From positions 1,044 through 65,043 of the forward strand of contig DATBED010000042.1 in assembly GCA_036276195.1 (NCBI GenBank): a DNA stretch of 64,000 nt. Direction: 5' to 3'. Shown piece by piece: positions 1,342-23,657 of this stretch. Position 1 is the first letter of the stretch. The number at the start of each line of letters is the position of its first letter. Under the pieces are notes generated by a model. The model ran no database searches, had not been told where the DNA came from, and saw only the letters and a program-made list of their open reading frames with translations. The position numbers were made by a program, and so were the translations under genes. Origin of the DNA: Candidatus Saccharimonadales bacterium (GTDB lineage Bacteria > Patescibacteriota > Saccharimonadia > Saccharimonadales > UBA4665).

Positions 1342-2499
1342 ATGGCGACATACAAACTGATACAAGACATTGAGGCCGAGGATCACATCCTGGGGCCGCT
1401 AACGCTGCGCCAGTTTATTTTCGCACTGATTGCCGCCTTTTTTGGCTACCTCTGCTTTATCGTGGCCACCAGGGGAGTGGCTTTTCTGCTGATATTATTC
1501 GCGCCGCCGGCCCTGTTTTTTGCCTTTTTCGCCTTGCCATTCGGTAAAGACCAGCCGACCGAGATCTGGTTCCTGGCCAAATTGCGCTTTTGGTTACTGC
1601 CGCGCAAGCGCATGTGGGATCAGAGCGGCGTCAAGGAGCTGGTGACTATTACCGTGCCTAAAAAGGTCGAGCAGGTGCTGACCGATGGCTTGAGCCAAAC
1701 AGAGGTCAAAAGCCGCTTGCAGGCCCTGGCTAACACCATTGACAGCCGCGGCTGGGCCGTTAAAAACGTTAACGTTTATACACCGCAAGTAGTGGTTGGT
1801 GGTAGCGATTCCGATCGCTTGCTTGATCTGAGCAGCTTCCCGCAGGAGGTGCCGGCTGACGCTACTCCGGCGTCTGACGACATTCTAGATAACAGCAGCC
1901 CGGTCGCCCAGCAGATGGACGCCATGGTTAGCCAATCCGTTCAGGCCCACCATCAGAAGCTGATGGAAGAGTTAAATAGGCCTGAGCCTACTGCCGCTGC
2001 GGCCCCGGCCGGCCACTGGTTTATGTCGCCCTCAGCGGCCCAAGACCCGGCCATGCCGGCAGCGCTCCCCCTGATGCCGGCGGCGCCCCTGTCTGTGCCG
2101 GCTCCTTTGCCAAATCCTGTGCCAAATTTTGTGCCGGCTCCTCTGGTACCGCTGCCTAGCATGCCGTCGTACAGCTACACACCGCCGCCGGTTGCTCCGG
2201 ATGTTCCAGCCGGCAGCTTGGCTAACGAAGATCAGTTAACCAAGGAACTGAAGAGCCATGCCACAAAGGGCGCCGCCTACGGCCACATGCGCACCTTGCG
2301 GCCGTTGAGCGACCAGCCAGTGGCTTCGCCTGCGCCGGCCGTTAGCGCTGCTCCTGTACCAGTCCCGACTGATCCAGATATACTGGCCCTAGCTGGCAAC
2401 AACGACCTTAATGTCGAAACGCTGGCCCGCCAGGTGCACAAAACCCACAAAGACAAGGGTAGCGCTGATCCTAACGAAGTAGTGATTTCACTCCATTAA
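1342..2499 (+). CDS. PrgI family (VirB3-like) T4SS membrane protein with long Pro/Ala-rich tail
   Basis: The N-terminus YKLIQDIEAEDHILGPLTLRQFIFALIAAFFGYL plus two TM helices is the PrgI pattern. About 250 aa of low-complexity P/A-rich sequence follow. The track start is 1333 (GTG); ATG 1342 is preferred. Confidence 0.65.
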   Translation: MATYKLIQDIEAEDHILGPLTLRQFIFALIAAFFGYLCFIVATRGVAFLLILFAPPALFFAFFALPFGKDQPTEIWFLAKLRFWLLPRKRMWDQSGVKELVTITVPKKVEQVLTDGLSQTEVKSRLQALANTIDSRGWAVKNVNVYTPQVVVGGSDSDRLLDLSSFPQEVPADATPASDDILDNSSPVAQQMDAMVSQSVQAHHQKLMEELNRPEPTAAAAPAGHWFMSPSAAQDPAMPAALPLMPAAPLSVPAPLPNPVPNFVPAPLVPLPSMPSYSYTPPPVAPDVPAGSLANEDQLTKELKSHATKGAAYGHMRTLRPLSDQPVASPAPAVSAAPVPVPTDPDILALAGNNDLNVETLARQVHKTHKDKGSADPNEVVISLH

Positions 2500-2546
2500 G
2501 TTACGCTTAGTGTTGTGCCTGCCTGTCTGGAGCCCTCTTTTTGTAA

Positions 2547-2692
2547 TTTTGAGTTTTTCACGAAATTCTGTTAATCGGCAAATCTCTAAGGTGTTAAAAT
2601 AAACAGTTTCACAAAATTCCGTTAAAAACTCAAAATGCCGAAAACGTTCAACCAAGAACCCTGTTGTAAATTTTAAGGGTTTAGAGGCGGCC
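2547..2692. repeat. copy A of a 3-copy intergenic element (two 18-bp quasi-palindromic boxes at 2557-2574 and 2608-2625)
   Basis: Near-identical to 22066-22208 and, as reverse complement, to 18241-18335. It lacks the cccccg/cggggg module of copies B and C. Confidence 0.85.
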
Positions 2693-2742
2693 AAGGCGCC
2701 GGCCTGGCCGGATGGTATGTGGATTTGACATTGGTGGCAGCG

Positions 2743-2771
2743 ATGACAGCCGAGGCTGATCCTGCTATACT
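2743..2771 (+). promoter_or_regulatory. candidate sigma70-type promoter for the virB4 genes
   Basis: ATGACA 2743-2748, 17-nt spacer, TATACT 2766-2771. Confidence 0.35.
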
Positions 2772-2806
2772 AACCATAAACGAAAAGGTGGGCGCCGTCA
2801 GCGAAC

Positions 2807-3901
2807 ATGAATCCTCAAACAAATAATCCAGACCCCTTGGCAAACGGGCAGCCGGTGGCTGTGCCTTTTCAGCCTGGCGAGGTTTCGATTCAACCGGCCG
2901 GCTTGCCGCGTGCCGAAGGTCAGCGCTTCGCGGCGCCGATTAGCTTTAGTGGACCAATAAGTACCGGTGAGCCGGTCATTCCCATCCAGCCGCCAGCCCA
3001 GCCGTTGACTGTGCCATTGCCGCCGCCAGTGATCCAGCCCCACACCCTGGCACCACCGGTGCCGGTTGGTGGTGTCATGCCGGAGCGGCCAGGCCCGCCT
3101 TCGCCGCCGCAACCGGTGGCCACTCAAGCCGCGTCGCCGCAGGCCAAAACCGGTACTGGCGGTACGCCGCCGGTCCATTCGCACAGCACCCAAAACTCTC
3201 TGCAAATCGCTGAAATTCGCGACGGCATCGTAATCATGAGTGACGGATCATTTAGAGCAGTGCTAATGGTTAAAAGTATCAACTTCGATCTGATGAGCCA
3301 GCAAGAGCAAGAGGCGGTGGAGTATTCCTACCAGGGCTTTTTGAACTCGCTGTACTTTCCGGTTCAGATCTTTATTCGCTCGCAAAAGGTCGACCTGCAG
3401 CCCTACATTGAGAAGCTAGATAAAATCCGAACCGAGCACGACAACATGTTGCTGGCGCTGATGATGGAGGATTATATCGGCTACATTGATGCCCTTAGCC
3501 AACAGACCAACATCATGGACAAGAAGTTTTACATTGTGGTTCCTTTCTTCCCTGTGGTTGACGCCCAGCAGGCGCTGACCCAAAGCAAGAACTTCCTAAC
3601 CGGCTTGGGCAGCCTGTTCAACAAGCAAGACAAGCACGTGGTGATCAACGAGGCCGATCTGGAAAACGCCAAAACCGAGCTGCGCAACCGGGTGCAGGCG
3701 GCGCTGGCCGGCTTGCAACAGTGCGGTATTCAAGGCCTGCCGCTCGACACCCAAGAGCTGATCGAGCTGTATTACGACTCTTACAACCCCGACACGGCTA
3801 CCCGCCAACAGCTCAAGAATTTCGACCATTTGACGGCCGACATTGTCACCAAAGGGCAGGGCGCCGCACCGCAGGCCCACTTGCAGAGGGAGCTTAACTG
3901 A
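2807..3901 (+). CDS. VirB4 N-terminal-domain-like protein without P-loop, proline-rich N-terminus
   Basis: 364 aa. The first ~140 aa are Pro-rich. The segment IAEIRDGIVIMSDGSFRAVLMVKSINFDLMSQQEQEAVEYSYQGFLNSLYFPVQIFIRS resembles the N-domain of Gram-positive VirB4/TraE proteins. The stop overlaps the next ATG (TGATG). Confidence 0.45.
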   Translation: MNPQTNNPDPLANGQPVAVPFQPGEVSIQPAGLPRAEGQRFAAPISFSGPISTGEPVIPIQPPAQPLTVPLPPPVIQPHTLAPPVPVGGVMPERPGPPSPPQPVATQAASPQAKTGTGGTPPVHSHSTQNSLQIAEIRDGIVIMSDGSFRAVLMVKSINFDLMSQQEQEAVEYSYQGFLNSLYFPVQIFIRSQKVDLQPYIEKLDKIRTEHDNMLLALMMEDYIGYIDALSQQTNIMDKKFYIVVPFFPVVDAQQALTQSKNFLTGLGSLFNKQDKHVVINEADLENAKTELRNRVQAALAGLQQCGIQGLPLDTQELIELYYDSYNPDTATRQQLKNFDHLTADIVTKGQGAAPQAHLQRELN

Positions 3902-5844
3902 TGCTTGGCAAGAAGAAGCAAGCGGTCGACCCGGTGGCTGTGGCCCAAGCCCAGCGGGCCCGTGAAGAACAAGAAGTGCAGGCCGCTTTTCAAAAGGGCA
4001 TTACGGCGCTACGCGACTTTATTGCACCGAGCTCGCTGGAGCTTAAAAGCACCTACTTTCAGCTGGGCACGCGTTACGCCCGCACTTTTTACGTGTTTGG
4101 CTACCCGCGCCAGGTCTACACCGGCTGGCTAAGCGGCCTGGTTAACGTTGACGAGGTGGTCGACATTAGCATGTACATTTACCCGGTCGAAAGCCAGGTG
4201 GTACTAGAGAACCTGCGCAAGAAGGTGACGCAGCTGGAGGCCGGCATTCAAATCGACAGCGAGAAGGGGCGGGTGCGCGATCCGGCCAAGCAGGCCGCCA
4301 TTCTCGACGCCGAAGAAATGCGCGACAAGCTGCAGGTCGGCGAAGAACGCTTCTTCCGTTTTGGCCTGTACTTCACCTTGTACGCCGGCAGCATGGAAGA
4401 GCTGGAGTTCGTCTCTCATAAAGTCGAGTCAATGCTCGGCCAGCAGCTGGTTTACAGCAAGCCGGCCACTTCGCAGCAGGAGCAGGGCTTGAACAGCACC
4501 GTGCCGCAAATGGTCGACCAGCTGCAGATCCGCCGCAACATGAGCACCGGCGCTTTGAGCACCAGCTTTCCCTTCACCAGCGCCGACTTGTCGCAAGACA
4601 CCGGCATTTTGTACGGCATCAACATGCACAACTCCGGTCTGGTTATTTTTGACCGCTTCTCGCTGGAAAACGGCAACTCGGTGGTCTTCGCCAAGTCGGG
4701 CGCCGGCAAGTCGTTCCTGGTTAAGCTGGAAGCATTGCGCAGCATGATGTTCGGCACCGAAATTTTTATCATCGACCCCGAGAACGAGTACCAGCGCATG
4801 GCTGACGCCGTTGGCGGCGCTTACGTGCGTCTTAGCTTGAACTCTTCCACCAGGATTAACCCGTTTGATTTGCCGAAAGTAGTTGACGCCGAAGAAGCCG
4901 ACAACGCCTTACGATCTAACTTGATCACGCTGCATGGGCTACTGCGCCTAATGATGGGCGGCGCCCAGATTCAGATGCAAGGCGGCGGCATGATGCCGGC
5001 CCTGGCGCCCAGCGAAGAAGCCGACCTCGACGCCGCGCTAATCGAAACCTACGCTAAAGCCGGCATCACCAACGACCCGTTAACGCACACCGCCCAGCCG
5101 CCGACCATCGCCGACCTCTACGACACGCTGCTGCACATGGGCGGCACCGGCCCGCAGCTGGCGCAGCGCCTGCGCAAGTACACCAGCGGCACCTTCGCCG
5201 GCATTTTCAGCCAACAGAGCAATATCGACATCAATAATCCGCTGGTGGTGTTCAACCTGCGCGACCTGGAAGACGAGCTGCGCCCTGTCGCCATGTATAT
5301 TGTGCTGAACTTTATCTGGAACAAGACCAAGGCCGACCAAAAACGTCGCTTGCTGGTGGTCGACGAGGCCTGGCAGCTAATGAAGTACGAGGATTCGGCC
5401 AACTTCTTGTTCTCGCTGGCCAAGCGGGCCCGTAAGTACAACCTGGGCATCACCACGGTGACGCAAGACGTCGAAGACTTTATGGGCTCGCGCATGGGCC
5501 GGGCGATTGTGGCCAACGCCTCAATGCAGTTCTTATTGAAGCAGTCGAGTTCGGCCGTCGACGTGCTGACCGATGTTTTCAAGTTAACTAGCGAGGAGCG
5601 TAAGCGTCTTAGCCAGTTCCCGGTCGGCCAGGGCCTGTTTTTTGCCGGCCAGAACCATGTGCACATTCAGGTGGTGGCCAGCCCGACCGAGACATCGCTG
5701 ATCACTACCAATCCGGAGCAGGTCCAACAGATCAATGCTGCCGCGGCGGCCGGCCCGGCAGCGGCCGGCGAATTCAACCAGCCGACCGGCACGATCGACC
5801 TGGGCAACCGCCTGGCGCCCGGCAGTTCCGGCACCAGCGCTTAA
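3901..5844 (+). CDS. virB4: VirB4/PrgJ/TrsE-family type IV secretion ATPase
   Basis: 647 aa. Walker A is VFAKSGAGKSF and Walker B is RRLLVVDEAWQLM. The N-domain FQLGTRYARTFYVFGYPRQVYTGWL is typical of Gram-positive VirB4. Confidence 0.85.
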   Translation: MLGKKKQAVDPVAVAQAQRAREEQEVQAAFQKGITALRDFIAPSSLELKSTYFQLGTRYARTFYVFGYPRQVYTGWLSGLVNVDEVVDISMYIYPVESQVVLENLRKKVTQLEAGIQIDSEKGRVRDPAKQAAILDAEEMRDKLQVGEERFFRFGLYFTLYAGSMEELEFVSHKVESMLGQQLVYSKPATSQQEQGLNSTVPQMVDQLQIRRNMSTGALSTSFPFTSADLSQDTGILYGINMHNSGLVIFDRFSLENGNSVVFAKSGAGKSFLVKLEALRSMMFGTEIFIIDPENEYQRMADAVGGAYVRLSLNSSTRINPFDLPKVVDAEEADNALRSNLITLHGLLRLMMGGAQIQMQGGGMMPALAPSEEADLDAALIETYAKAGITNDPLTHTAQPPTIADLYDTLLHMGGTGPQLAQRLRKYTSGTFAGIFSQQSNIDINNPLVVFNLRDLEDELRPVAMYIVLNFIWNKTKADQKRRLLVVDEAWQLMKYEDSANFLFSLAKRARKYNLGITTVTQDVEDFMGSRMGRAIVANASMQFLLKQSSSAVDVLTDVFKLTSEERKRLSQFPVGQGLFFAGQNHVHIQVVASPTETSLITTNPEQVQQINAAAAAGPAAAGEFNQPTGTIDLGNRLAPGSSGTSA

Positions 5845-5847
5845 GCC

Positions 5848-5877
5848 TTGCAGGCGTGCATCGTTTTGTAGTACAAT
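5848..5877 (+). promoter_or_regulatory. promoter of relB/yafQ cassette
   Basis: TTGCAG 5848-5853, 18-nt spacer, TACAAT 5872-5877, then ATG 9 nt downstream. It begins immediately after the left direct repeat. Confidence 0.4.
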
Positions 5878-5886
5878 GTATGCACT

Positions 5887-6168
5887 ATGAATAGTACGGC
5901 CCTGACCATCAGAACCGATCCTAAGACCAAAAAGGCCATAGCAGACTTTGCGGCCTCTGTTGGCCTGTCTACCAGCGCCTTCGCGACGGCCATCCTTAAG
6001 CAAGCCGTGCGGGAGGGCCGTGTGGTATTAAGTCCTGCTCTGGAACCCACGCCGTATCTAGAGAAAATCATGCGTCAAGCAGATAAGGACATAAAGAAAG
6101 GCACAAACCTATCGCCGGTATTCGACTCGGTTGATGACATGTTCGATCACCTTGAAAAGACTGCCTAA
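5887..6168 (+). CDS. RelB/DinJ-family antitoxin
   Basis: 93 aa. The N-terminal RHH-like segment is LTIRTDPKTKKAIADFAASVGLSTSAFATAILKQAVREGR. Architecture resembles DinJ. Confidence 0.7.
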   Translation: MNSTALTIRTDPKTKKAIADFAASVGLSTSAFATAILKQAVREGRVVLSPALEPTPYLEKIMRQADKDIKKGTNLSPVFDSVDDMFDHLEKTA

Positions 6169-6173
6169 AAGTC

Positions 6174-6431
6174 ATGAAGGTGCGCTATCTTAAATCTTTC
6201 CAAAAGCAAGTAGTAAAGCTGCAACCGGCCCAAACTAACCGGCTCAAAGCTGCGCTGTTGCTGTTCCAGATCGAACCAGACCACCCAGACCTTTACAATC
6301 ATCCTCTTACTGGTAACTGGGCGGGTTATCGCTCGATTGCCTTCGGAGGAGACTTACGGGCGCACTACAAAATGGTTAACGACATTGCGGTTTTCGTGGC
6401 TTGCGGCAGACACAGCCAGCTCTATAAATAG
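6174..6431 (+). CDS. YafQ/RelE-family mRNA interferase toxin
   Basis: 85 aa. It carries the HPLTGNWAGYRS motif typical of YafQ/RelE-type toxins and starts 5 nt after the antitoxin. Confidence 0.7.
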   Translation: MKVRYLKSFQKQVVKLQPAQTNRLKAALLLFQIEPDHPDLYNHPLTGNWAGYRSIAFGGDLRAHYKMVNDIAVFVACGRHSQLYK

Positions 6432-6548
6432 CTCCGCGCCCGGCAGCTCCGGCACCAGCGTTTAAGCCGGCCTTCAGACAAGGGTAAACTCGACCGTTTT
6501 AAGGTATAATGGTAAACGTAAGAATTAAGACTTAGGTGAAAAACCAAC

Positions 6549-9500
6549 ATGGCAAATCAGGTCTATGACCCCAGGGCCGACGAAGAACGTGCACCAGAAT
6601 CTGATGATCTAAGCCCAGAACACGGCGCCGCAGCCGGCAAACCTTATGATCCGCGTGGCCACGATGTCGCGGCCGGTAACTCATCTGACCCTCGCGGGGA
6701 CGGACTTAGTGATGTCCGACAAGCCGAAAATAGCCCCGGCCTTTATAACCCAAAGGGTGACAAAAGCGAAAACCCAAGCGGCCTCAAGGGTTCTGAGGAA
6801 TCAACTGGCGGAGGCGACACCGTTGGGAGTGGCTACAACGACGACAAGGAACCAACCAAAAGACAAAGAGCTAAGGCGGGTTGGGCCATACTCAAAAATC
6901 GCAAAGTCCTTGTTGGGGGTGGTAGTGGCATCATAATTAGCGTAATCGTAGCTTTTCTATCTCTAAGCTCTGGTCCGCTGGAGTTTATTCACATTGCCCA
7001 GCTGCTCGAAAAGTTCCATTTCTCGGCCCAACAAGACGGTGAAGCCAGCCGACTTATGAAAATAGCTCGCTTCATTAACGACCCGTCAAAACCTCAAAAC
7101 ACCCGTCTAGGCATAATAGGCAATGCAGTAGCTAACAATTTGGAGGCCAAGATTCACGACGCCACCGGCCTAAATAATAAGTACAATAGCCAGACTGGTA
7201 AGTTTGAGGGGTACTCAGTTGACCCGAAACATGAAAACTTTAAAGATAAGACCAACCAGCAAATTATAGACGAGCTCGTAAGCACCTACGGCATAAACGA
7301 ATCACAGATTACCTTAACGCCCCAGATAAAAGGGGCGCCAGAAGTTAGCTTTAACCCGGATACCGGCGGTTCGGCTTTAAATCCTATAAACACCGTAAAG
7401 AGTTATCGTAACCAAACCGGCTTTGCCCGTTCTTTACTGGGGAAAGCAGGCTTGAGCAAGGTTTCAGCCTGGGCCGGCACCAGGGTACTAACCAAAAGAG
7501 CTGGCTGGACCTTTCACCCGATAAAGGCACTAGATTCGGCGTATCAGCAACAGCTTTTAAAAGGCGGCAAGAAGGTGTTTGATAAGCTTAAAGAGCAGTT
7601 CAATAGTCAAGAGACTAGCTCAATAGCTAGTGACACCACCGCCCCCCCAAGTACGCCAGAAAACAGTAATGAACAAGGTCCAAATGGCCAACCCGCAAAT
7701 GACTCTAACAGAACGAGTGCGGCCAACGCCGGCAATAGCGTCCAAGCCGATCCATCCGAGACTAATGTTAAGGCCAAGATTGCAGGTGGCGGCGCCGCCT
7801 TAGTTGGTGTTGCCTGTGTCATGCATGGCATTGATGAAAGCGTTCCGAAATTAAGGGAAGCGAAGGTTATATTTCCTATGATGGAATTTGCCGGCCAGTT
7901 TATAAGTCTTGGCAGCCAGGCGCAAAGCGATCAAGACATAACCACGGCCCAGCTTGGCTTATATAAACCGTTCCTAGATGGCACCAACAGCCAAGGCCAG
8001 GTTACTTCAACCTGGAATCAAGCCCAGAGTATCCAGGCCGAGCTTGGCGAGCCGCAAAACGGCCCTGATCTTCCTAAGAGCGCTCAAGTGTTTAACGCTG
8101 GGGTGCCCTTCGGATTTATCGATGGAATTCCCGGGCTGGGCGGCATTTGCAGTATTTTGGGAAGTCCACTTGGCCAAATTGCTGGCACAATCCTTTCGCC
8201 TTTCGCAACGGCCTTTCAGTCAGTTGCGATCGGACCATTAATCTCGGATTTTACCGGTTGGTTATCTGGTGTGCCGATAGACATTCTTAAAGGTGCTGGT
8301 GCTGTGGATGGTAACTACATTAACTACGGTGCCAGGGCTGCGGCTGACCAGCAGTATGCCTCGGCGGGTGGCACGACCATGAGCTCAAGCGACGAGTCCA
8401 ACCTAAAAAATACGACTGTGGCGCTCGATAACAAGGATTTCCAATCAAAAAGCCTGGCTTATCGTATCTTTAATCCCGACGACGCTCAGAGCCTGGCTTC
8501 TAATATTATGGATAATTATGGCTCGAGCGGCATTGCTCAAGGCTTTGCCAGCATGTTCCATAGTTTTGGCAGTATATTTACGGCCGCTTTAAGGGTGCCG
8601 GCTACTCTATTCTCTGGCATTACGCATGCCGCAAGCCAGCCTTATGATTACCATGGCTTGCAGAAGGTTGGCTTCACGGCGGCCGACTTAGCTAATCCGC
8701 TGTTTGATAATTCGTTTCAAAATGGCTGTGATGTAACAGGTGGATGTAAAAAGCCAGATGGCACGCCGGTTGGCCCCACAATAAGCCAAAGCGTCCTAGG
8801 AGATCCGGCGAATCCAAACCAAGCAAACAAAGACGTAATTACCAAAGTTAATACCTGTTTTGGCGACACGATCTCTAATGACGGCACTATGTGGAACATT
8901 GACTACGGCTCAGCGCCCCTGGACATGTATAGCGACGCTTACACTTCAGCTAATTGCGACAGCCATGACACGTCGTGGATGCGCGTTCGCTTCTGGATAC
9001 TCGATACCCAAACCTTGGAAGGCTATGACTGCAGCCAAAGCAACTCCTCGACAGCCGACCAATCTTGCACGGACATTGGCTTCAACACCTCTGGATCAGG
9101 CAGCAGCTCAACTACCACAGCCCCGACAGCCTCCAGCCCCGCACCTACGGGTAGCGCAAAAGATTTGGCCGCACAGCTCCTACCTTACATTAGTCAGAAA
9201 AAAATATCTTGTAATAACCAAGCTAGCGACTGCCCCGACATTCAAAATACAGCTAATGGTGTAAGTATAAAAGGTGGACAGGGCTGCCAAGTCGATTCAC
9301 TACAACCAGGATTATTGGGCATGTTATTAAAGCTAGTGCAGATGGGTCATACGTTTGTTCTTTCGGCAATATGTAGTGATCATTCTAATGATGGCTTGGG
9401 TGGACATGCTGGTGGTCGAGCGGCTGATTTCAATATAATTGATGGGGTGTTTATGGGGCCCGACGATGTGCCCTGGGACAGTACAAAAATTGCAGCTGGA

Positions 9501-9647
9501 CAAAAACTTGATCAAGACATCGCCTCATTCATGCCTAAAAGTACCGGTTTTGGCCAGATACAGTGCCACCCAGCTTTCCCTTTTTTGAGCGGCTTTAATA
9601 CTTTTAACGACACCTGTCATCACCAACACATACAAGTAGAGAACTAA
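6549..9647 (+). CDS. large membrane protein with C-terminal LAS/M15-type zinc peptidase (cell-wall hydrolase) domain
   Basis: 1032 aa. A disordered N-terminus with DPRG repeats is followed by a TM segment (GGSGIIISVIVAFLSLS). The C-terminus has GHAGGRAAD (H-x6-D) and HHQHIQV (H-x-H), as in M15/VanY-like peptidases. Confidence 0.55.
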   Translation: MANQVYDPRADEERAPESDDLSPEHGAAAGKPYDPRGHDVAAGNSSDPRGDGLSDVRQAENSPGLYNPKGDKSENPSGLKGSEESTGGGDTVGSGYNDDKEPTKRQRAKAGWAILKNRKVLVGGGSGIIISVIVAFLSLSSGPLEFIHIAQLLEKFHFSAQQDGEASRLMKIARFINDPSKPQNTRLGIIGNAVANNLEAKIHDATGLNNKYNSQTGKFEGYSVDPKHENFKDKTNQQIIDELVSTYGINESQITLTPQIKGAPEVSFNPDTGGSALNPINTVKSYRNQTGFARSLLGKAGLSKVSAWAGTRVLTKRAGWTFHPIKALDSAYQQQLLKGGKKVFDKLKEQFNSQETSSIASDTTAPPSTPENSNEQGPNGQPANDSNRTSAANAGNSVQADPSETNVKAKIAGGGAALVGVACVMHGIDESVPKLREAKVIFPMMEFAGQFISLGSQAQSDQDITTAQLGLYKPFLDGTNSQGQVTSTWNQAQSIQAELGEPQNGPDLPKSAQVFNAGVPFGFIDGIPGLGGICSILGSPLGQIAGTILSPFATAFQSVAIGPLISDFTGWLSGVPIDILKGAGAVDGNYINYGARAAADQQYASAGGTTMSSSDESNLKNTTVALDNKDFQSKSLAYRIFNPDDAQSLASNIMDNYGSSGIAQGFASMFHSFGSIFTAALRVPATLFSGITHAASQPYDYHGLQKVGFTAADLANPLFDNSFQNGCDVTGGCKKPDGTPVGPTISQSVLGDPANPNQANKDVITKVNTCFGDTISNDGTMWNIDYGSAPLDMYSDAYTSANCDSHDTSWMRVRFWILDTQTLEGYDCSQSNSSTADQSCTDIGFNTSGSGSSSTTTAPTASSPAPTGSAKDLAAQLLPYISQKKISCNNQASDCPDIQNTANGVSIKGGQGCQVDSLQPGLLGMLLKLVQMGHTFVLSAICSDHSNDGLGGHAGGRAADFNIIDGVFMGPDDVPWDSTKIAAGQKLDQDIASFMPKSTGFGQIQCHPAFPFLSGFNTFNDTCHHQHIQVEN

Positions 9648-9651
9648 ATAA

Positions 9652-12138
9652 ATGCCAAGTATTGCCCAGCATACGCCTAAGGCCACTTTTATGAAGCGAG
9701 CGTTGTGCTTAATTGCAGTGGTGCTTTTGGTGTCTCAGCCTTTTATGTTTAAAGGCTCCGCTTCGGCGACCGGTCTGTGCGACAGCCAAAAAAAGGTTTT
9801 TGCCGATGGCATCCCCTACTTCAACTCCTGCACATGTGATTCCTCTTCAAGCACACAGACGCCTGCAACTAACCCAACAGGAGGGGCTACAGGATCTGTA
9901 TATATGTTGGGCGACTCTATAACCTTTGGCTCTAAGGATGATTTGGCGAGCGACTTTAAGCAAGCCGGCTACAGCTCGTCATACATTTCTGCTCGCGTAT
10001 CCCGCTCTTTATCCAGTCCGGGTAGTTCAGTTACTAGTGACGGTACGGCCGATAGCTATCATGCCGGGCTTGACCAGTTAGATGTAGACAAAAGCAAGAT
10101 CGCCAGTTCAGACACCGTAATAATGGCTCTGGGTACAAACGCCGAGATAAACGGCTCTTTTCATGACAACGTAACGAGCGCCATAAATAAGATCAAGGCG
10201 GCCAACCCCAATGCAAACATCTATTGGGTCAACATATTTTCTAACGTACCTGACCATAAAGCCGCCTACAATAGTACCCTCAACTCTCTTTCTTCCAGCC
10301 TTGGGTTTACGGTTATTGACACGACTGGCGCAAACATAAGCCTATCGGGTGATGGCATACACCCAGACACAAACGGTCAACAAACGTATGCTGATCTGGT
10401 TGCAAAAGCCGTTTCCAGCAGCACTACTCCCGCGCCTGCACCAGACACTAGCAGTGCGTGTGCCTGTACTGCAGGTGCAATAGATAGCAGCAGCGCTTTG
10501 GTGGGTAATAATAATGTCCAAAAGGCCTGGAACTTCTTCAAGAGCCAGGGATTGAACGATGCCCAAACGGCGGGTATCTTAGGTAATTTACAAGATGAAT
10601 CGGGCCAAAACATTGACCCGGAAATAAATCAAAATGGCTCTGGTGATAGCCAGACTCAACCGAAAACCGGCGGTGCCGACGGCTGGGGTATTGCTCAGTG
10701 GACCTACCCTTCCCAAGACTTTGACCAGTTAATTAAGCAGTACAAAATTAGTGGTCCGGGCAACGAACTAGCCACCCAGCTTAATCTAGTGTTGGCTCAA
10801 ATGAAAGATGTTAGCCCCACTGGCGTTAAGGATACTTTCTCGGCCATAAAACAGATTAATGATCCCGGTCAGGCCGCCGCTTTCTTTGATACTAATTTTG
10901 AAGGTGGCGTGTCAGGCGGCCGCGTCCAAAACGCAACTACTTTATATGGTCAGCGCGGCCAGCTTAACCAATCAAGCGGCTCAACAGGTGGCAGCACTGG
11001 TGGAAATGCCACTGGCGCCTCAACCACTACTAGTGACATATTAGAGGGGCATAAATTGCCTGCCACGGTTGGCGGTACTGGCGATGAAGCTCCAGTGGAT
11101 AGTAGCGGCCATCTGACAGTTGGTGTTGGAGCTGTCACATTTAGTCAGTTCGCCTCTCTTGGGCAAAACTATCGTGATTATTACATAACTATGCGTTGGC
11201 GTTACGCCCTGTGGAATTGGGACGGCACTAATACGAGTGGCCCGGAAGACTCCAGCTGGTATGGCCAGAAACCCCGACTGGTGCTAGTGACTAATCCACG
11301 AAACCATAAAAGCATTATTGCGGATATTATGGAGAGCGGCCCAGCACCATGGACGGGTGTAGATACCCAATCCAATAACACGCCGAAGGAGGGCTGGACT
11401 AACCCGCAAGACGGTACGCCTTCAGGTTATACTGGCCGAGTCTCTGGCTTCCCACCGCCAGCCATTCAGGCACTCGGCGCTAGTCAGACTACCAGCGATG
11501 GCTCAGGTGACAAACTAGAGTATGCTTGGGCGCCTGATCAAACCGCCCAGCCAGGCCCAACCACTCTTCAAGTTAATGGAACGGGCGGGGGGTCTGGTGA
11601 CTGTAGTAGTAGCGGGGGTGTAAATGGCGGCGCCTATCAGAACCCCTTTAAGGATATACCCAACATCAGACCGGAGGGTATAGACGCAGGGGTAGATTAT
11701 GTGGGTGATGGCCCTGTACACCCTATTGGTCCGGCAAAAGTAGCCGTATCAGAGCCTAACTCTCCTTGGCTATACGGTAATTACATAAGCTACACATTAA
11801 CAAGTGGTCCAGCTGTCGGTAAAACCGTCTATGTTGCAGAAGACTGTACTGTAAATACTGCTCTACACCAAGGACAGGTCATAGGCCCATCCGACACTGT
11901 TTGTACCCTAAACAGTAAGCGCACTGGCCTTGAGACTGGGTGGGCCAATGCAAATAATGATTTGCCACTGCCATACACAGATCATTGTTATTACCTGGTC
12001 AATCCGTCACTGCCAAAGACCTCAACCGCCTATGGTGTAAACTTCAACAAGTTGATGGTTAGTCTTGGCGTGCCTAACGCCAGCTTATTAGGCGGGCCGG
12101 TAACGTGTACTTTGCCAAGCGGATGGCAGCCACAATGA
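9652..12138 (+). CDS. secreted multidomain wall hydrolase: SGNH esterase + tail-lysozyme-like + LytM-like C-terminus
   Basis: 828 aa with a signal/TM segment. SGNH blocks are GDSITFGS, GTN and DGIHPD. GILGNLQDESG...GWGIAQWT resembles the phage-tail-lysozyme domain. GIDAGVDYVGDGPVHPIGPAKVAV resembles M23 but lacks a clear HxH. Confidence 0.6.
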   Translation: MPSIAQHTPKATFMKRALCLIAVVLLVSQPFMFKGSASATGLCDSQKKVFADGIPYFNSCTCDSSSSTQTPATNPTGGATGSVYMLGDSITFGSKDDLASDFKQAGYSSSYISARVSRSLSSPGSSVTSDGTADSYHAGLDQLDVDKSKIASSDTVIMALGTNAEINGSFHDNVTSAINKIKAANPNANIYWVNIFSNVPDHKAAYNSTLNSLSSSLGFTVIDTTGANISLSGDGIHPDTNGQQTYADLVAKAVSSSTTPAPAPDTSSACACTAGAIDSSSALVGNNNVQKAWNFFKSQGLNDAQTAGILGNLQDESGQNIDPEINQNGSGDSQTQPKTGGADGWGIAQWTYPSQDFDQLIKQYKISGPGNELATQLNLVLAQMKDVSPTGVKDTFSAIKQINDPGQAAAFFDTNFEGGVSGGRVQNATTLYGQRGQLNQSSGSTGGSTGGNATGASTTTSDILEGHKLPATVGGTGDEAPVDSSGHLTVGVGAVTFSQFASLGQNYRDYYITMRWRYALWNWDGTNTSGPEDSSWYGQKPRLVLVTNPRNHKSIIADIMESGPAPWTGVDTQSNNTPKEGWTNPQDGTPSGYTGRVSGFPPPAIQALGASQTTSDGSGDKLEYAWAPDQTAQPGPTTLQVNGTGGGSGDCSSSGGVNGGAYQNPFKDIPNIRPEGIDAGVDYVGDGPVHPIGPAKVAVSEPNSPWLYGNYISYTLTSGPAVGKTVYVAEDCTVNTALHQGQVIGPSDTVCTLNSKRTGLETGWANANNDLPLPYTDHCYYLVNPSLPKTSTAYGVNFNKLMVSLGVPNASLLGGPVTCTLPSGWQPQ

Positions 12139-12160
12139 TGCAATATAAGTGGAGGCTCTT

Positions 12161-13474
12161 ATGAAGAAACGTTATTTAATAATTGGTGCACTATTAGTTT
12201 TTATCTTTGTTTTAGTTGCTATCTTTACTCGTCCGCCTAAACCTAAACAAGTCGCCATCTATAAGGCCAGCTCGACTGCGAGCAATATACAATTCCCTTA
12301 CTTAGCTAGTTCTAAAACTATAGACTTTTTTACCGGCTCCGGCTTCGCCGCCTACGATACGAGCGCTGGAACTACAACTACATTAAGCCCACAGTTTATA
12401 TTGCCGAGTGTCAGTTCGATGAGCTGGTCAAGTAGCGGTGCTGTTTTCCAAGCCAGCGGTTATACGCCCGCTGATGATCTCTATCAAGTGCTGCTTAACG
12501 ACAACCAGCCGCTTAATCAGAGCTATTGGTGGAGCTATAGCTTAAGTAGCCAAAAGATTAGCTTAATTTTGCTCTCTGGCTCATCTAAAACGATAGGAGA
12601 TGCCTTAGAAAATAGTTCAGGGGCAAACTATGCTTACCTTTGCAATGATGGATCAGTTTATTTATCTGATAGTCCTGGCAGAGCAATAGTTAAGGTTAGC
12701 CCGAGCTCAAAGATCGTACAGCTCAGCGGCAACACCTTAACTATAGAAGGTGGCAATAGTTTGGAGCAGGTTGATACGCAAACTGCTGTAACAAAAGTTT
12801 TAGTCAATGGGCGTGCCCAGATACAAAATGCCTACGTGTCGGCCGATAGTCAGACTATAGCTTATACGGCTTCAACTAATCAAGGTTCGAAAGGAGAAAC
12901 TCCAGGCAGCTTGTACTTGCTAAATCCTGCCTCGCATAGATCACACAAAATATTATCTGGCTTTGAGGGTTTTATGAGTGGAGGTGGCGGCAACCTTTAT
13001 GTAGGTTATAGTGACAACAATAGTGTGGTGCATTTTGAGTACTACCCCTTGAAGGGTCAATCTTTGGCATACAGTATAGGCACAATACTAGATAGAGACG
13101 CCACACTTAGTAATATACTACCCTTAAATACCAACAATATATTTGTTGACTCATCGCGAAACACTCTCGTAAAAGCCTCGACTCGGCCGAGCAATACCTT
13201 AAACCCTATTAATAATAGCTACTTAATAGCTGGAGACTTCTATTTTGATGGTTTTGAAATACACTTTAACCCTTCTCAAAATACCTACGAAATTGACATA
13301 ACCAAAAACCCATTTTCGCAATACCAAGCAAACGCTCTCGCCTATATAAGTTCGCAAAAAATAGATCCTAACCAGATTATTATAAATTGGCGAGCTGGTG
13401 ATGGGGTTACAAATATCAATCCTGGCGTAGTTGGCTCTTCACCGCAGGCCACTACAAATAGTCCAAATGAATAG
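12161..13474 (+). CDS. membrane-anchored beta-rich hypothetical protein
   Basis: GGAGG lies 5 nt before ATG 12161. It has an N-terminal TM (YLIIGALLVFIFVLVAIF) followed by Ser/Thr-rich, propeller-like repeats. The track start at 12149 was rejected. Confidence 0.5.
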   Translation: MKKRYLIIGALLVFIFVLVAIFTRPPKPKQVAIYKASSTASNIQFPYLASSKTIDFFTGSGFAAYDTSAGTTTTLSPQFILPSVSSMSWSSSGAVFQASGYTPADDLYQVLLNDNQPLNQSYWWSYSLSSQKISLILLSGSSKTIGDALENSSGANYAYLCNDGSVYLSDSPGRAIVKVSPSSKIVQLSGNTLTIEGGNSLEQVDTQTAVTKVLVNGRAQIQNAYVSADSQTIAYTASTNQGSKGETPGSLYLLNPASHRSHKILSGFEGFMSGGGGNLYVGYSDNNSVVHFEYYPLKGQSLAYSIGTILDRDATLSNILPLNTNNIFVDSSRNTLVKASTRPSNTLNPINNSYLIAGDFYFDGFEIHFNPSQNTYEIDITKNPFSQYQANALAYISSQKIDPNQIIINWRAGDGVTNINPGVVGSSPQATTNSPNE

Positions 13475-13486
13475 TGTCTCTACGCT

Positions 13487-14542
13487 CTAGCCTAAGGCGA
13501 TCACGTTGGTGTGGCTGGTGAAGTTTTTGGTGACGAGGTCGGCGTCGGTAGTGGTTATGAAGGTTTGGTAAGGCGCCAGGTAGTCGGTTAGGGCGTGGCG
13601 GCGGCGGCCGTCGAGCTCGCTGAAAACGTCGTCGAGCAAGAGTAGGGGAGTGCTGTCGCGGGCGGCTTCGAGCAGTTTAAGTTCGAGGATTTTGAGCGCC
13701 AGCACCACGGTGCGCACCTCGCCGCGCGAGGCTGCCGCCTGGGCCGGGTGATCATCAAACGAAACCACCAGGTCTTCGCGGTGCGGGCCGCTGCCGGTGA
13801 AGCCGCGCAGCCGGTCATCGGCCAGACTCGACTCCAGCTTTTTCAGGAAGTGGCTCTCGTAGTGCTCGGGTGGCCAGCGGCTGTCGTAGCGCGCCGCCAC
13901 CTTACCGCGCGATTTTGATAGCTTTTTATACAAGGCGCCTAGGTCTTTATTTAGGTTATCGACTAGGCCAGTGCGGGCCCTGACTACCTGCCCGGCCAGC
14001 TGGCTTAGCCGGATATTCCAGGGGAAGATTTGAGTTTCGCTGGCGCCGTGGCGTGGCTGTTTGAGCAGGCTGTTGCGCTGGGCTAAGGCCCGTCGGTATT
14101 GGCGCCGTAAACTGCTGTAGCCCGGTGTAGTTTGTTCTAACAAGTCATCCAGGTAGTCGCGGCGCCGGTCAGGCCCACCAACAAAGAGCTGTAAATGGTT
14201 CGGCTCAAACAACACCACCGGCAAGCTGTGTGCCAGGCTAAGACGCCTATAGCTTTTCCCATCTAATTCGAAGCTTTTACTGGGCGGCTCGACCATAATT
14301 TTAACCGTGCGCTGGGCGCTGTTTTCGTGGTGGCCGTCTATGCGGGCCCAGGGCTGGCCAAACCCAATCAGCTCGGGGTCGCTGGCTCGGTAAGACGAAC
14401 CGCGGGCCAGCACCAAAATCGCCTCTAATAGGTTGGTTTTGCCGCTGGCATTGGGCCCAACCACAATGTTGACGCCCGGGCTAAGCTCAAACGACTCGTC
14501 TTTATAAGATCTAAAATGCTGTAGCCGTAAGTCGGTGATCAT
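13487..14542 (-). CDS. recF: DNA replication/repair protein RecF
   Basis: 351 aa. MITDLRLQHFRSYKD..., Walker A GPNASGKTNLLEAI, and C-terminal LLLLDDVFSELD. Confidence 0.9.
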   Translation of the reverse strand: MITDLRLQHFRSYKDESFELSPGVNIVVGPNASGKTNLLEAILVLARGSSYRASDPELIGFGQPWARIDGHHENSAQRTVKIMVEPPSKSFELDGKSYRRLSLAHSLPVVLFEPNHLQLFVGGPDRRRDYLDDLLEQTTPGYSSLRRQYRRALAQRNSLLKQPRHGASETQIFPWNIRLSQLAGQVVRARTGLVDNLNKDLGALYKKLSKSRGKVAARYDSRWPPEHYESHFLKKLESSLADDRLRGFTGSGPHREDLVVSFDDHPAQAAASRGEVRTVVLALKILELKLLEAARDSTPLLLLDDVFSELDGRRRHALTDYLAPYQTFITTTDADLVTKNFTSHTNVIALG

Positions 14543-14621: not shown

Positions 14622-14882
14622 ATGAAAGCTATCCCTATCCACGAAGCTAAAGCTAATTTGAGCAAGTATATTCAGCAGGCCAAGGCCGGCAAGCCCGTTT
14701 ATATTGGCGCCCGCGGCGAAACCGAGGTGGTACTTACCGCCGTTCCTAAAAAGAAGTCCGGCAGCAGCTTATGGGGCAGTATGAAGGGCCAGTTTAATTA
14801 TAGCGATGAGGAGTGGGACAAAGCTACGCGCCTTGTAAATGAGGATTTCGAAAAGAGCGAGATCTTTCCCGATGCTGATTGA
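14622..14882 (+). CDS. Phd/YefM-family antitoxin
   Basis: 86 aa. MKAIPIHEAKANLSKYIQQAKAGKPVYIGARGETEVVL is the Phd/YefM N-terminal pattern. It is a paralogue of 25405..25659. Confidence 0.75.
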   Translation: MKAIPIHEAKANLSKYIQQAKAGKPVYIGARGETEVVLTAVPKKKSGSSLWGSMKGQFNYSDEEWDKATRLVNEDFEKSEIFPDAD

Positions 14883-15264
14883 CACCCATATATTGGTCTG
14901 GATTCTGGAAAGCAAATTGGCTAAGCTTGGTACTCTGGCTCGGGATAACATCAATAATCAGCCGATTGTGGTATCTGTTGCCACACTAATAGAAATAGCT
15001 GTAAAAAAACGCAAGGGCAAGCTAGACGCACCCGATACCTTAACTATTTTAGCTAACTTAGCATCTAATAATATTGAGGTACTAGATATTCAGCCGGGGC
15101 ATGTTATCAACCTGCCGAGTTTAGAGACTATAAAGCACGCCGACCCATTTGATTTGCTCCTAATTTCTCAGTCCGTTTCCGAGAGTCTTCCTTTTTTGAC
15201 TTCTGACTCTAAGATTCTTGGAGCTTATATTCCGAACTTGCGGCTGATCGACGGCCGACGCTAG
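14872..15264 (+). CDS. PIN-domain VapC-family toxin
   Basis: MLIDTHILVWIL..., with the DPFDLLLISQS motif. ATG 14872 overlaps the antitoxin stop by 11 nt. The track start at 14839 was rejected. Confidence 0.75.
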   Translation: MLIDTHILVWILESKLAKLGTLARDNINNQPIVVSVATLIEIAVKKRKGKLDAPDTLTILANLASNNIEVLDIQPGHVINLPSLETIKHADPFDLLLISQSVSESLPFLTSDSKILGAYIPNLRLIDGRR

Positions 15265-16352
15265 CTCTTGAGGGGCATGATGATGTGCTTGTAGTCGGGG
15301 TCGCCAGGGCTCTGTAAGAGGGTCGGCTCCAGTTTGCCGTTAAAGCTAAATACTACTCCGTCGCCCAACATAACAGACAGCGCGTCAAGCAAATAGCGCG
15401 AGTTAAGGGTTATATTGCCATTGCCGATAACTTTGGCTGGCGCCGTGGCGTTATTCTCACCCAGTTGCGAAGCGGCCGAGCGGATACTAAGCTGCTGCTT
15501 GGCTTCGTCTAGCTCGATAGTGACACTGCCGGCACTTTCGCGGGCAAACAAGCTGGAAACTTTGGTTACACTAACTAAGTCGGCCTTTTTAAGGCTGGCT
15601 GTAGTGGCAAAACTACTAGGGATTAGTCTTTGGTAGTCCGGATATTTACCGTCAATCAACCGGGTAACCAGCTCGACGTCTCCAGCCTTGAATAGGGCCT
15701 GCTGGTCGTCGTGAGTGATGTTGATGTCGGCTTCATCATCTCCTAAAGTTCTGAGCAAGTCATGCATAGCCGAAGCTGGCACCAATAGTTTGATGTCTTG
15801 TTTTTGGGGGCCTAACTGTTTTTCGGCTAAACGATAGCTGTCGGTGGCGGCCATGTGTAATTTGCCGTCGATAGTTTGTAGTAGTACTCCTGTTAAGACC
15901 GGCCGCGTTTCATCATTACTGGCGGCAAAACCGATTTGTTGTAGCGCCCGTTTGAAAGTCACACCATCAACCTTCCATTTATTTCCGCCTTCAATAGCCG
16001 GCATGACCGGAAAATCATCAGCCAGTATGCCGTTAATTACCGACTGGTATTGGTCGGTGTTAATATGCAACTTGGTATCTTTTAGCTCGATATTTATCAC
16101 GCCGTCTGGCAGGCTGCCCACAAAATCTTGCGTTAGGCGGGCCGGTACGGTAATCGAGCCTTCGGTTGAGACTTTGGCACCAATGAAGTGGGTAATGGCA
16201 ATGTCTAGATTGGTGGCCGATAGGCTTAAGCGGTTCTGGCTGGTACGGATTAGAACATTAGCTAGGATTGGCAGCGTTCCACGGCTATTAGCCACTTTGG
16301 CTACGGAGTTTAAGGCGCGGTTTAGGTTTTCGCGGGTAACTTGCAGTTTCAT
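15261..16352 (-). CDS. dnaN: DNA polymerase III beta sliding clamp
   Basis: 363 aa. MKLQVTRENLNRALNSVAKVANSRGTLPILANVLI is the typical DnaN N-terminus. It sits downstream of dnaA. Confidence 0.9.
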   Translation of the reverse strand: MKLQVTRENLNRALNSVAKVANSRGTLPILANVLIRTSQNRLSLSATNLDIAITHFIGAKVSTEGSITVPARLTQDFVGSLPDGVINIELKDTKLHINTDQYQSVINGILADDFPVMPAIEGGNKWKVDGVTFKRALQQIGFAASNDETRPVLTGVLLQTIDGKLHMAATDSYRLAEKQLGPQKQDIKLLVPASAMHDLLRTLGDDEADINITHDDQQALFKAGDVELVTRLIDGKYPDYQRLIPSSFATTASLKKADLVSVTKVSSLFARESAGSVTIELDEAKQQLSIRSAASQLGENNATAPAKVIGNGNITLNSRYLLDALSVMLGDGVVFSFNGKLEPTLLQSPGDPDYKHIIMPLKS

Positions 16353-16413: not shown

Positions 16414-16561
16414 GTATTCTGGGTAAAAGAATACTGCCAACAGATGGAAATTCACTTAATTCATAGTGGAAAAGCCCTAGTAAAACCAGGCCGTATTCTT
16501 GGGTAAAAACCAGCCAGTTAGCCACAACCAGCCTGAATGGTTTTAGTGGGCCTGTGGCTAA
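16414..16561. promoter_or_regulatory. DnaA-box-like cluster between dnaA and dnaN (possible second oriC half)
   Basis: agtggaaaa at 16465-16473 is TTTTCCACT on the minus strand. TTAGCCACA at 16518-16526 has an inverted copy, tgtggctaa, at 16553-16561. A direct repeat GTATTCT(T)GGGTAAAA occurs at 16414 and 16493. AT-rich sequence lies at about 16366-16400. Confidence 0.45.
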
Positions 16562-16616: not shown

Positions 16617-17993
16617 TTACGCATATAAATGCTCCCTGATTTCGCTAATAGCCATACGCAAGCTGGCATCGACCCGGGCCTCTCTATCGATTTTACCAAC
16701 CGAATGGATGGCTGTGGTGTGGTCTTTGCGGCCTAGTTCCTTAGCAATTTTAGGGAAGCTCAAGTTGAGCTCGTTGCGCAGGATGTACATGGCTACCTGG
16801 CGCGGCACCACAATATCTTTATCGCGCTTTGGCCCGACAATATCTTCGACTGGGATCTGGAAGTGGCGAGCCGTCCGCTCGATTATTTGTTTAGCGCTTA
16901 GGTGTTTCGGCCGAGCTTTACTGACATTCAACAGGCTAGTGGCAATAGATATGGTGGGGTCTAGGCCACGCATTTCACAAAAGGCTAACAGTTGGTTTAG
17001 GGCGCCTTCCAGCTCACGGATATTGGTCTGGATGTTGGCGGCCAGGTACTCGACTATTTCATTCTCTAAGTCGGTGCCATGGCTGCCGGCTTTGGTCTGC
17101 ACAATCGCGCAGCGCGTTTCAAAGTCGGGGATCTGCATATCTATGGCCATGCCGCCGCCAAAGCGCGATTTCAGCCGGTCTTCAAGCCCAACAATATTAC
17201 TGGGCGGCTGGTCGGAGCTCATGATAATCTGCTTATTGGCCTGATGTAGCGTGTTGAAGGTATGGAAGAACTCATCCTGGATTTTATCTTTACCAGCCAG
17301 GAATTGAACGTCGTCAACAATTAATACATCGGCGGATCGATAATAGTGGGCGAAGTCGGTGGCCGTGCGGCTGCGCAAGGCGGCCACGAACTCTTGTACG
17401 AACTGCTCGGTGGCAATATACAGGATGTTAGCTTGCGGTGCCCTGGCCTGCAGCGCGTTGCCGACCGCCTGGATCAAATGAGTCTTGCCAATGCCGACCC
17501 CGCCATAAACGTAAAACGGGTTGTAGCGGGTGCCCGGCCGCTGGACTATCGCCTGGCAAGCGGCAAAAGCCAGCTCGTTACCATCGCCAACTACGAAATT
17601 TTCTAGAGTGTAGCGTTCGTTCAAAGCTGGCCGGAAGTTCCTAGGCCCGGCCTGGGCCGGTCGCTCTAAGCTATGTTGCCCAACGCTTACGGCCGGCTGG
17701 GCAGCCTCTTCGGGTTTGGGCTGTTCATCGGTTTTCCGCCCAGCGTGGCCCGGCATCATCTTATAGGCGATCTCTTTAACTTCTACGCCTTGCTTCTTAA
17801 GCGTCTCGGTAATCACGCTGGCGTATCTTTTCTCGAGGGTATTACGCACGAAAGGGTTATTAACGCCAATGACGACCCGGCCTTCCTCTTGTTTGAGCAG
17901 CTGAGTATTTTTAAACCAAGTGACGTAGTTAGCATGCGATAGACTAACTTCCAGCTCGCCTAAAACAGCCTGCCAAACAGCATCCTTTTGCAC
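16617..17993 (-). CDS. dnaA: chromosomal replication initiator DnaA
   Basis: 458 aa with a GTG start and GGAGG 7 nt upstream. Walker A is GGVGIGKTHLIQAVGN, and the C-terminal DNA-binding helix is DHTTAIHSV. Confidence 0.95.
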   Translation of the reverse strand: MQKDAVWQAVLGELEVSLSHANYVTWFKNTQLLKQEEGRVVIGVNNPFVRNTLEKRYASVITETLKKQGVEVKEIAYKMMPGHAGRKTDEQPKPEEAAQPAVSVGQHSLERPAQAGPRNFRPALNERYTLENFVVGDGNELAFAACQAIVQRPGTRYNPFYVYGGVGIGKTHLIQAVGNALQARAPQANILYIATEQFVQEFVAALRSRTATDFAHYYRSADVLIVDDVQFLAGKDKIQDEFFHTFNTLHQANKQIIMSSDQPPSNIVGLEDRLKSRFGGGMAIDMQIPDFETRCAIVQTKAGSHGTDLENEIVEYLAANIQTNIRELEGALNQLLAFCEMRGLDPTISIATSLLNVSKARPKHLSAKQIIERTARHFQIPVEDIVGPKRDKDIVVPRQVAMYILRNELNLSFPKIAKELGRKDHTTAIHSVGKIDREARVDASLRMAISEIREHLYA

Positions 17994-18041: not shown

Positions 18042-18165
18042 TTTTCCACAGAGACTTTTATAATTTAATCAGGATTTAATGGTTAGGCCAAACGGAGGTC
18101 GGGTTTTCCACAGTTATGCTTCCTATCTGTTAATCTGTGGATACTACCGCGGTTTTCGTGGATAA
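18042..18165. promoter_or_regulatory. oriC-like DnaA-box cluster upstream of dnaA
   Basis: TTTTCCACA at 18042-18050 and at 18104-18112. tgtggatac at 18136-18144 is GTATCCACA on the minus strand. cgtggataa at 18157-18165 is TTATCCACG on the minus strand. An AT-rich stretch lies at 18051-18085. Confidence 0.7.
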
Positions 18166-18240
18166 CCAAGCCGCGATTGCGGGGTAAACATTGTTAAAAC
18201 CACATACCCTTGTTGGCGTACGGCTGCATCTCTGTGCCCG

Positions 18241-18400: not shown

Positions 18401-18435
18401 TCGGCCGCTTAAGAGCAGTGATTAATGATGTCGGA

Positions 18436-21924: not shown

Positions 21925-22003
21925 AAGCTATCTGTAATCCATTATAAACCTTAGCAACAAGCATTGTGTGACTCTTTGCTTAAGGGTTGCTGATGGTGCC
22001 TAC

Positions 22004-23652: not shown

Positions 23653-23657
23653 GAGAG

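Follow-up and report, generated by a model that had tools for sequence, protein, structure and literature searches.

A chromosomal Patescibacteria-type T4SS locus beside recF-dnaN-dnaA in a Saccharimonadales bacterium

Introduction

Saccharibacteria are ultra-small bacteria that live on other bacteria. In a cultured relative of the organism considered here, Southlakia epibionticum ML1, the gene cluster for a type IV secretion system (T4SS) has been delimited as SEML1_0006-0019 (Wang et al., 2023, Cell, PMC10633639). The ML1 order is dnaA, dnaN, recF, a 249-amino-acid (aa) protein, a PEGA exported protein, a 643-aa lysozyme/cysteine-protease protein, a 1113-aa protein with a Hedgehog/DD-peptidase end, VirB4, a 293-aa protein and PrgI, followed at the end by two ~1000-aa VirB6-like proteins, six pilins, Hsp20 and ComF (PMC10633639). 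By transposon sequencing (Tn-seq), SEML1_0004-0011 and 0013-0019 are essential in ML1 (PMC10633639). Across the phylum Patescibacteria, T4SS loci show MPF_FATA ancestry, a missing relaxase, a remote type IV coupling protein (T4CP), pilin arrays and proximity to dnaA (Quinonero-Coronel et al., 2025, Microb Genom, PMC12102498), and the system appears in a 2025 review as a special case already known. Here we describe the corresponding locus in a stretch of 64,000 nucleotides (nt) from a Candidatus Saccharimonadales bacterium (assembly GCA_036276195.1, contig DATBED010000042.1), referred to below as the window.

An earlier note on this DNA, made from the sequence alone, had recognized a relaxase-less, Gram-positive-type T4SS-like module beside the replication origin and had read it as core chromosome. 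That finding holds and has been published before: the locus is one more ordinary Saccharimonadia copy of a known T4SS locus, and its genes are orthologous to SEML1_0004-0010 of ML1. We are highly confident that it represents the downstream two-thirds of a chromosomal Patescibacteria-type T4SS with a fixed core function in living on a host bacterium, and that it is not a conjugation apparatus.

Gene content of the locus

Six genes lie in series on the + strand at window 1342-13474. Their open reading frames (ORFs) and translations, together with Pfam and NCBIfam scans, confirm the list of six given in the earlier note:

1342-2499, + strand, PrgI/VirB3-like membrane protein (Pfam PrgI PF12666, E 3.2e-10, aa 11-94)
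2807-3901, + strand, TrsD-type protein, the VirB4 N-terminal domain as a separate gene product, preceded by a Pro-rich head
3901-5844, + strand, VirB4 ATPase, lacking family-model positions up to ~178 (NCBIfam conju_CD1110)
6549-9647, + strand, 1032-aa single-pass membrane protein (one transmembrane (TM) segment, aa 120-138)
9652-12138, + strand, 828-aa exported multi-domain cell-wall hydrolase (SGNH aa 83-249, Phage_lysozyme2 aa 288-421; Pfam)
12149-13474, + strand, 441-aa membrane-anchored protein in the slot before recF (N-terminal TM segment, aa 9-27)

The profile matches that identify the first and third of these genes, to PF12666 and conju_CD1110, are both above cut-off. PrgI scores 40.9 bits against a Pfam cut-off of 27 and has two TM segments and a long Pro/Ala-rich tail; its exact 385-aa product also occurs on a JGI contig. 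The 647-aa VirB4 scores 355 bits against conju_CD1110 (cut-off 325) over model positions 179-734, and both of its nucleotide-binding motifs are intact (Walker A, GAGKS, at aa 267, nt 4699-4713; Walker B, LLVVDEAW, at aa 484, nt 5350-5373).

The gene between them had been called a VirB4 N-domain paralogue, a reading that we reject. Its product matches NCBIfam TrsD (8.3e-6) and positions 2-118 of the CD1110 model, both under the curated cut-offs, and is annotated as PF26593 TraC-like in the JGI precomputed annotation. It thus covers the part of CD1110 that is missing from the 647-aa VirB4 and has no BLASTP similarity to that protein. Because the model coverage is complementary and the similarity nil, the two ORFs complement each other, and the product is the VirB4 N-terminus encoded separately rather than an extra copy. 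The stop codon of trsD overlaps the start codon of virB4 (TGATG). The arrangement is the pGO1-type TrsD one, reported to be the T4SS component met most often among Patescibacteria (Quinonero-Coronel et al., 2025, PMC12102498).

Comparison with described systems

The locus resembles that of ML1 in having the same order beside dnaA-dnaN-recF, with VirB4, TrsD-like and PrgI proteins, small exported proteins, a multi-domain lysozyme protein and an ~1100-aa protein that in ML1 has a DD-peptidase-fold end; in both, the cluster is without a relaxase or coupling protein. There are also differences. This genome has two toxin-antitoxin (TA) cassettes and a small repeat in the operon, an unrelated 441-aa protein fills the slot before recF, and the VirB6-like and pilin genes of this genome would lie outside the window. 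The lysozyme protein carries an SGNH domain and a putative, degenerate LytM-like end here, whereas that of ML1 carries a second lysozyme domain and a cysteine protease.

With the MPF_FATA-related clade of Patescibacteria (Quinonero-Coronel et al., 2025, Microb Genom, PMC12102498), the locus has in common the TrsD, PrgI and VirB4 core, the absence of a relaxase, the absence of a T4CP near virB4, VirB2-like pilin arrays (for the window locus, those of its relatives), a position near dnaA/dnaN/rnpA and alternative hydrolases that replace VirB1. We found no substantial difference between that clade and the window locus.

The T4SSs that serve conjugation in Gram-positive bacteria (pGO1, pIP501, pCF10 and CTn2, with TrsD-TrsE, PrgI-PrgJ and CD1110) share several of these parts: the VirB4 of the window passes the CD1110 cut-off, the N-domain protein is separate and of TrsD type as in pGO1, VirB3 is of PrgI type, and a membrane-anchored multi-domain wall hydrolase is encoded beside the ATPase (in theirs the VirB1-like TraG/PrgK, with lytic transglycosylase and CHAP domains). 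Unlike those systems, the window locus is chromosomal, vertically inherited and without a relaxase, coupling protein or oriT context; its relatives have VirB2-type pilins, which are lacking in monoderm conjugative systems, and a locus of this type is essential for growth in the cultured relative.

Conservation and chromosomal setting

Comparative data came from 80 related loci taken from different species genomes. Of more than 8000 database clusters related to VirB4, the best 120 listed have 88-94% identity; those of the 120 that bear a name are Saccharimonadales/Patescibacteria. PrgI was found in 76 of the 80 loci with a median identity of 43%, and the TrsD-type protein in 79 of 80 with a median of 72%. 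From PrgI-TrsD-VirB4 up to recF/dnaN, the order is kept in every locus with at least 9 kb of downstream sequence (56/56). After VirB4 the relatives encode a protein of the ~1000-aa family and, usually, one of the lysozyme family; between one and three small anchored proteins come next, before recF-dnaN-dnaA. This order was derived independently and equals that of ML1.

VirB4 is 84-93% identical to the window protein (median 86%), compared with 58-81% for DnaN (median 67%) and 59-82% for DnaA (median 63%). Its conservation exceeds that of DnaN in all 51 loci compared, a contrast that is somewhat inflated by the choice of loci by VirB4 similarity.

On its downstream side the module abuts recF-dnaN-dnaA, as the earlier note had said; these genes are on the minus strand and directly follow the 441-aa gene:

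13487-14542, - strand, recF (translation)
14839-15264, + strand, PIN-toxin gene between recF and dnaN (Pfam PIN)
15261-16352, - strand, dnaN (translation)
16617-17993, - strand, dnaA (translation)

The names recF, dnaN, dnaA, rnpA, yidC and jag rest on translations and on matches in the related loci and not on a profile scan. The recF-dnaN-dnaA block forms a fixed boundary between the locus and the rest of the chromosome. Clusters of DnaA-box-like sites fall at 16518-16561 and 18042-18165, in the intergenic regions on either side of dnaA.

On the other side, upstream of prgI, 57 of the relatives encode a protein of ~950 aa that has six TM segments as well as a signal peptide and is VirB6-like by topology and position. 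Five to seven genes of the VirB2-type T4SS_pilin family (PF18895) are encoded on the opposite strand (234 genes in 51 loci), and genes for Hsp20 and for a phosphoribosyltransferase resembling ComF bound the VirB6-like and pilin region. On this upstream side of the relatives, neither a relaxase nor a T4CP nor an integrase was found. In the window itself, no relaxase, VirD4-type coupling protein or integrase family was matched by the proteins of the T4SS region or by 40 further ORFs at 14.8-64 kb, in keeping with the earlier note, and no second recurrent P-loop ATPase was found within +/-10 kb in the 80 loci.

An integrative and conjugative element (ICE), or the decayed remnant of one, could have landed beside the origin with its missing mobility genes upstream of the window. 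Such an origin would fit the best score of VirB4, which is to the conjugative family CD1110, as well as the TA cassettes and small repeat inside the locus, and the sequence upstream of nt 1 in this genome is unread. It would also fit the base composition, since G+C is 0.57-0.59 over window 2000-6000 (the 3' end of prgI, trsD and virB4) and ~0.50 in the flanks; the Pro/Ala-rich tails of PrgI and TrsD may contribute to this rise. We nevertheless regard an ICE as very improbable. The recF-dnaN-dnaA-adjacent order recurs in all 56 loci from different species, VirB4 is more conserved than DnaN throughout, the relatives hold pilins, the VirB6-like gene, hsp20 and comF upstream and no mobility genes, and the TA cassettes are absent from the 80 relatives and are hence later insertions. 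The ancestral transfer from monoderm conjugative systems was ancient (PMC12102498). The synteny, the conservation of VirB4 and the lack of upstream mobility genes in the relatives all argue for the core-chromosome reading of the earlier note.

Insertions in the operon

Three insertions that the gene list of the earlier note does not include interrupt the run of genes or its upstream approach:

609-1284, + strand, TA cassette upstream of prgI (RelE-family PF06296 toxin 609-998, MqsA/HTH antitoxin 982-1284)
2547-2682, no strand assigned, small repeat with hairpin arms in the prgI-trsD spacer (~136 nt, up to ~170 nt)
5848-6468, + strand, RelB/YafQ TA cassette after the virB4 stop (relB 5887-6168, yafQ 6174-6431)

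The first cassette is supported by Pfam matches to RelE (6.8e-40) and to HTH_3 and MqsA_antitoxin (~1e-7), and the second by matches of yafQ to RelE_StbE/YafQ (1.4e-9) and of relB to RelB (0.0027). A 33-nt direct repeat (5815-5847 and 6436-6468, 94%), which is the duplicated 3' end of virB4, flanks the RelB/YafQ cassette. Because neither cassette occurs in any of the 80 related loci, both are interpreted as later insertions. Operon junctions are compact and overlapping in the relatives; the prgI-trsD spacer is 307 nt here versus a median of 42 nt in relatives, and the spacer between VirB4 and the next gene is 704 nt versus a median of 26 nt. An operon that is tightly packed in relatives here tolerates selfish insertions between its genes, namely two TA cassettes and one small repeat.

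The small repeat has three copies in the window (2547-2682, 18239-18405 and 21998-22200; 93-94% identity). Two of them form a direct repeat of 136 nt (2547-2682 and 22065-22200, 93%), and inverted copies of up to 167 nt lie at 18239-18405 and 21998-22164. The direct repeat is the only long one present; we considered it as a pair of att sites and rejected it, given that the repeat has three copies and that the pair encloses dnaA. The absence of an att-like boundary reported in the earlier note stands. One copy of the repeat is in the dnaA-rnpA intergenic region, alongside a DnaA-box cluster.

Upstream edge and the slot before recF

The window begins within a gene for which there is no relative in the 80 loci:

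1-471, + strand, 3' end of a gene for a 442-aa soluble orphan protein (full gene in metagenome contig L001, 172-1500)

The 442-aa protein has no TM segment and no relative in the related loci or in metagenome contigs. It fits a hypervariable slot that lies between the VirB6-like gene and prgI in relatives, where 32 mutually unrelated singleton proteins occur in 29 of 57 loci; 30 of these 32 are soluble, without a TM-like segment. The slot proteins are candidate species-specific cargo or regulators.

The window truncates the system, as the VirB6-like gene and the pilins lie just upstream of nt 1 in relatives. The full 442-aa gene is present on two contigs (L001 and L083), both of which break 75-171 nt upstream of the gene. 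These are independent metagenome assemblies, and their breaks (L001 1-171, L083 1-74) fall within ~100 nt of each other. The coincidence suggests repeated or strain-variable sequence at the point where the VirB6-like gene and pilin array lie in relatives. Metagenome contigs were scanned both for an exact pattern and at the protein level, and neither scan yielded sequence further upstream. The contig recorded for the 441-aa protein measures 66,266 nt, so that the assembly behind the window probably stops close by as well.

At the other end of the locus, the membrane anchor that the earlier note had assigned to the 441-aa protein is seen as the TM segment at aa 9-27. The protein has no known domain, and a PDB sequence search returned no significant match. 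Its family is narrow: apart from its own there are 7 related database clusters, all of them lacking a Pfam domain, and a single homologue among the 80 loci (in L023). N-terminal hydrophobic segments are general in this variable slot, being found in 106 of 110 genes across the relatives.

The two large exported proteins

The 1032-aa protein starts with a disordered N-terminus and one TM segment, continues with a conserved scaffold whose fold is unknown and ends in a module of ~165 aa. Its family (the ~1000-aa family) was found in 72 loci. The protein has no Pfam match and a PDB sequence search gave nothing significant. The AlphaFold2 (AF2) model has confident blocks at ~aa 140-320, 420-530 and 580-840 (pLDDT 80-95), for which Foldseek returned no PDB match at E < 2. 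Homologue coverage falls after residue ~840. Over its last 165 residues the protein shares 66% identity with the end of the protein in locus L005, to which it is just 30% identical overall.

The earlier note had described this C-terminus as a zinc peptidase with an H-x6-D ... H-x-H motif. The motif is present (HAGGRAAD and HHQH near the end of the protein), and HAGGRAAD (H...D) and C-x-H-x-H are invariant in six of six homologues of the module; HxxGxAxD is found near the C-terminus in 26 of the 72 family members. Pfam domains in the C-terminal ends of 42 members are VanY (6), Exo_endo_phos (3), M23 (3), CHAP (2), SGNH (2) and GDPD (1), and the VanY domain of the six orthologues (6/42) sits at the same position as the motif of the window protein. 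In ML1, the C-terminus of the orthologue SEML1_0007 is of the Hedgehog/DD-peptidase type (Wang et al., 2023, PMC10633639). For the window protein, Pfam and Foldseek gave no match, and a PDB profile search with the module and its alignment with VanY-type ends by hhalign (P = 0.27) were not significant. A zinc peptidase is thus plausible from motif, position and the ML1 orthologue, and not demonstrated.

The 828-aa protein is a VirB1-type component. It comprises an SGNH domain, Phage_lysozyme2, an uncharacterised middle module and a LytM-like degenerate end; the Pfam matches to SGNH and Phage_lysozyme2 agree with the SGNH and tail-lysozyme domains named in the earlier note. AF2 is confident for aa 80-440 only, residues 443-828 being unusable (pLDDT ~30), and a PDB sequence search found nothing significant. 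Over residues 642-826 the protein is similar to the C-termini of three members of the ~1000-aa family (38-41% identity); the sole link to M23 is through one of these, 39% identical to the 828-aa end, which has a weak, sub-threshold M23 match (3.6e-4). The 828-aa C-terminus itself has no Pfam match to M23, and the aligned positions of the M23 ligands read DxGVD, YVAE and ETGW instead of His. With these zinc ligands missing, the description "LytM-like" would at best be a fold label for a predicted zinc-less domain.

In both families the enzyme modules differ between species (e.g., L005 8666-12481 and L010 11979-15374). Phage_lysozyme2 is kept in 39 of 47 members of the lysozyme family, to which C39/CHAP/NlpC, Amidase_3, GH3, SGNH, M23 and SLT domains are added in one species or another. 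One module type is common to the ~1000-aa and lysozyme families.

Other features of the window

The remainder of the window encodes cell-envelope glycan synthesis, housekeeping and TA genes. Toxin genes are scattered among the core genes, three of the PIN family and one MazF (14839-15264, 23257-23667, 25019-25408 and 50417-50791). G+C is 0.42-0.45 in the glycan-synthesis region at 28-46 kb. Scans of the window for tRNA genes and Rfam families were empty.

Possible function

The absence of a relaxase and T4CP, the essentiality of the ML1 genes and the extreme conservation of VirB4 lead us to consider the system a host-interaction machine. The non-conjugative role suggested in the earlier note matches the published view (PMC10633639, PMC12102498). 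Going by the roles of the respective families, VirB4 would act as the membrane-associated ATPase motor, docked at the membrane by PrgI (VirB3) and the detached N-domain protein TrsD, and the VirB6-like polytopic protein and the 5-7 VirB2-type pilins encoded upstream in relatives would form a channel and pilus. The 1032-aa and 828-aa exported hydrolases may open peptidoglycan for the apparatus and probably the host envelope too, and the small membrane-anchored proteins before recF may be lineage-specific surface parts.

The cargo could be proteins, with fast-evolving products of the locus or other effectors delivered into or onto the host cell. The soluble, hypervariable singletons of the slot upstream of prgI, which the 442-aa orphan fits, would be suited to this role, and the lipase, phosphodiesterase and EEP modules on the two large proteins are unneeded for remodelling of the cell's own wall; Wang et al. 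(2023) favour protein export or an alternative role (PMC10633639). On the other side, no coupling protein is seen near virB4 and there is no defined secretion signal. We hold effector export as a tentative option.

A T4SS that runs inwards, like archaeal Ced or Helicobacter ComB, could instead import nucleic acids and feed an organism that is unable to make nucleotides. VirB4 has weak partial matches to the DNA-import ATPases CedB (2.8e-16) and CedD (1.9e-4), far under cut-off, and those to CedB are confined to the shared P-loop region. The adjoining comF of the relatives and the absence of a relaxase or coupling protein would be consistent with import, and a 2026 preprint ties the feeding of a cultured relative on host RNA to tubular pili that are possibly T4SS pili. 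In ML1, on the other hand, competence that depends on comEC can be separated from the essentiality of the T4SS (PMC12857230). Nucleic-acid import as such is a doubtful candidate in our view; protein export and, more broadly, import of host macromolecules we rate about equal.

Several observations weigh against our reading of the locus as a non-conjugative chromosomal T4SS. The VirB6-like gene and the pilins are seen in relatives only; in this genome they would lie upstream of the window. For the zinc-peptidase and LytM calls on the two large proteins, neither profiles nor folds gave significant support. A VirD4-like gene may be encoded elsewhere in the genome, such genes being reported at a distance from virB4 in most Patescibacteria (Quinonero-Coronel et al., 2025, PMC12102498).

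Implications

The two large exported proteins might be carriers of interchangeable modules that attack the envelope of the host and that, along with the slot proteins, set the host range of an invariant T4SS motor. We put this forward as a speculation that is rather unlikely to hold. If it is true, the hydrolase modules and the proteins of both flanking slots would be aimed at the host envelope and would not be housekeeping wall openers. The contrast between a near-invariant motor and rapidly re-tooled hydrolases and slot proteins is a pointer to where host specificity may be encoded. Among T4SSs, the system to which this locus belongs is the first for which essentiality to the bearer has been reported, and ultra-small epibionts may use it to tap their hosts.

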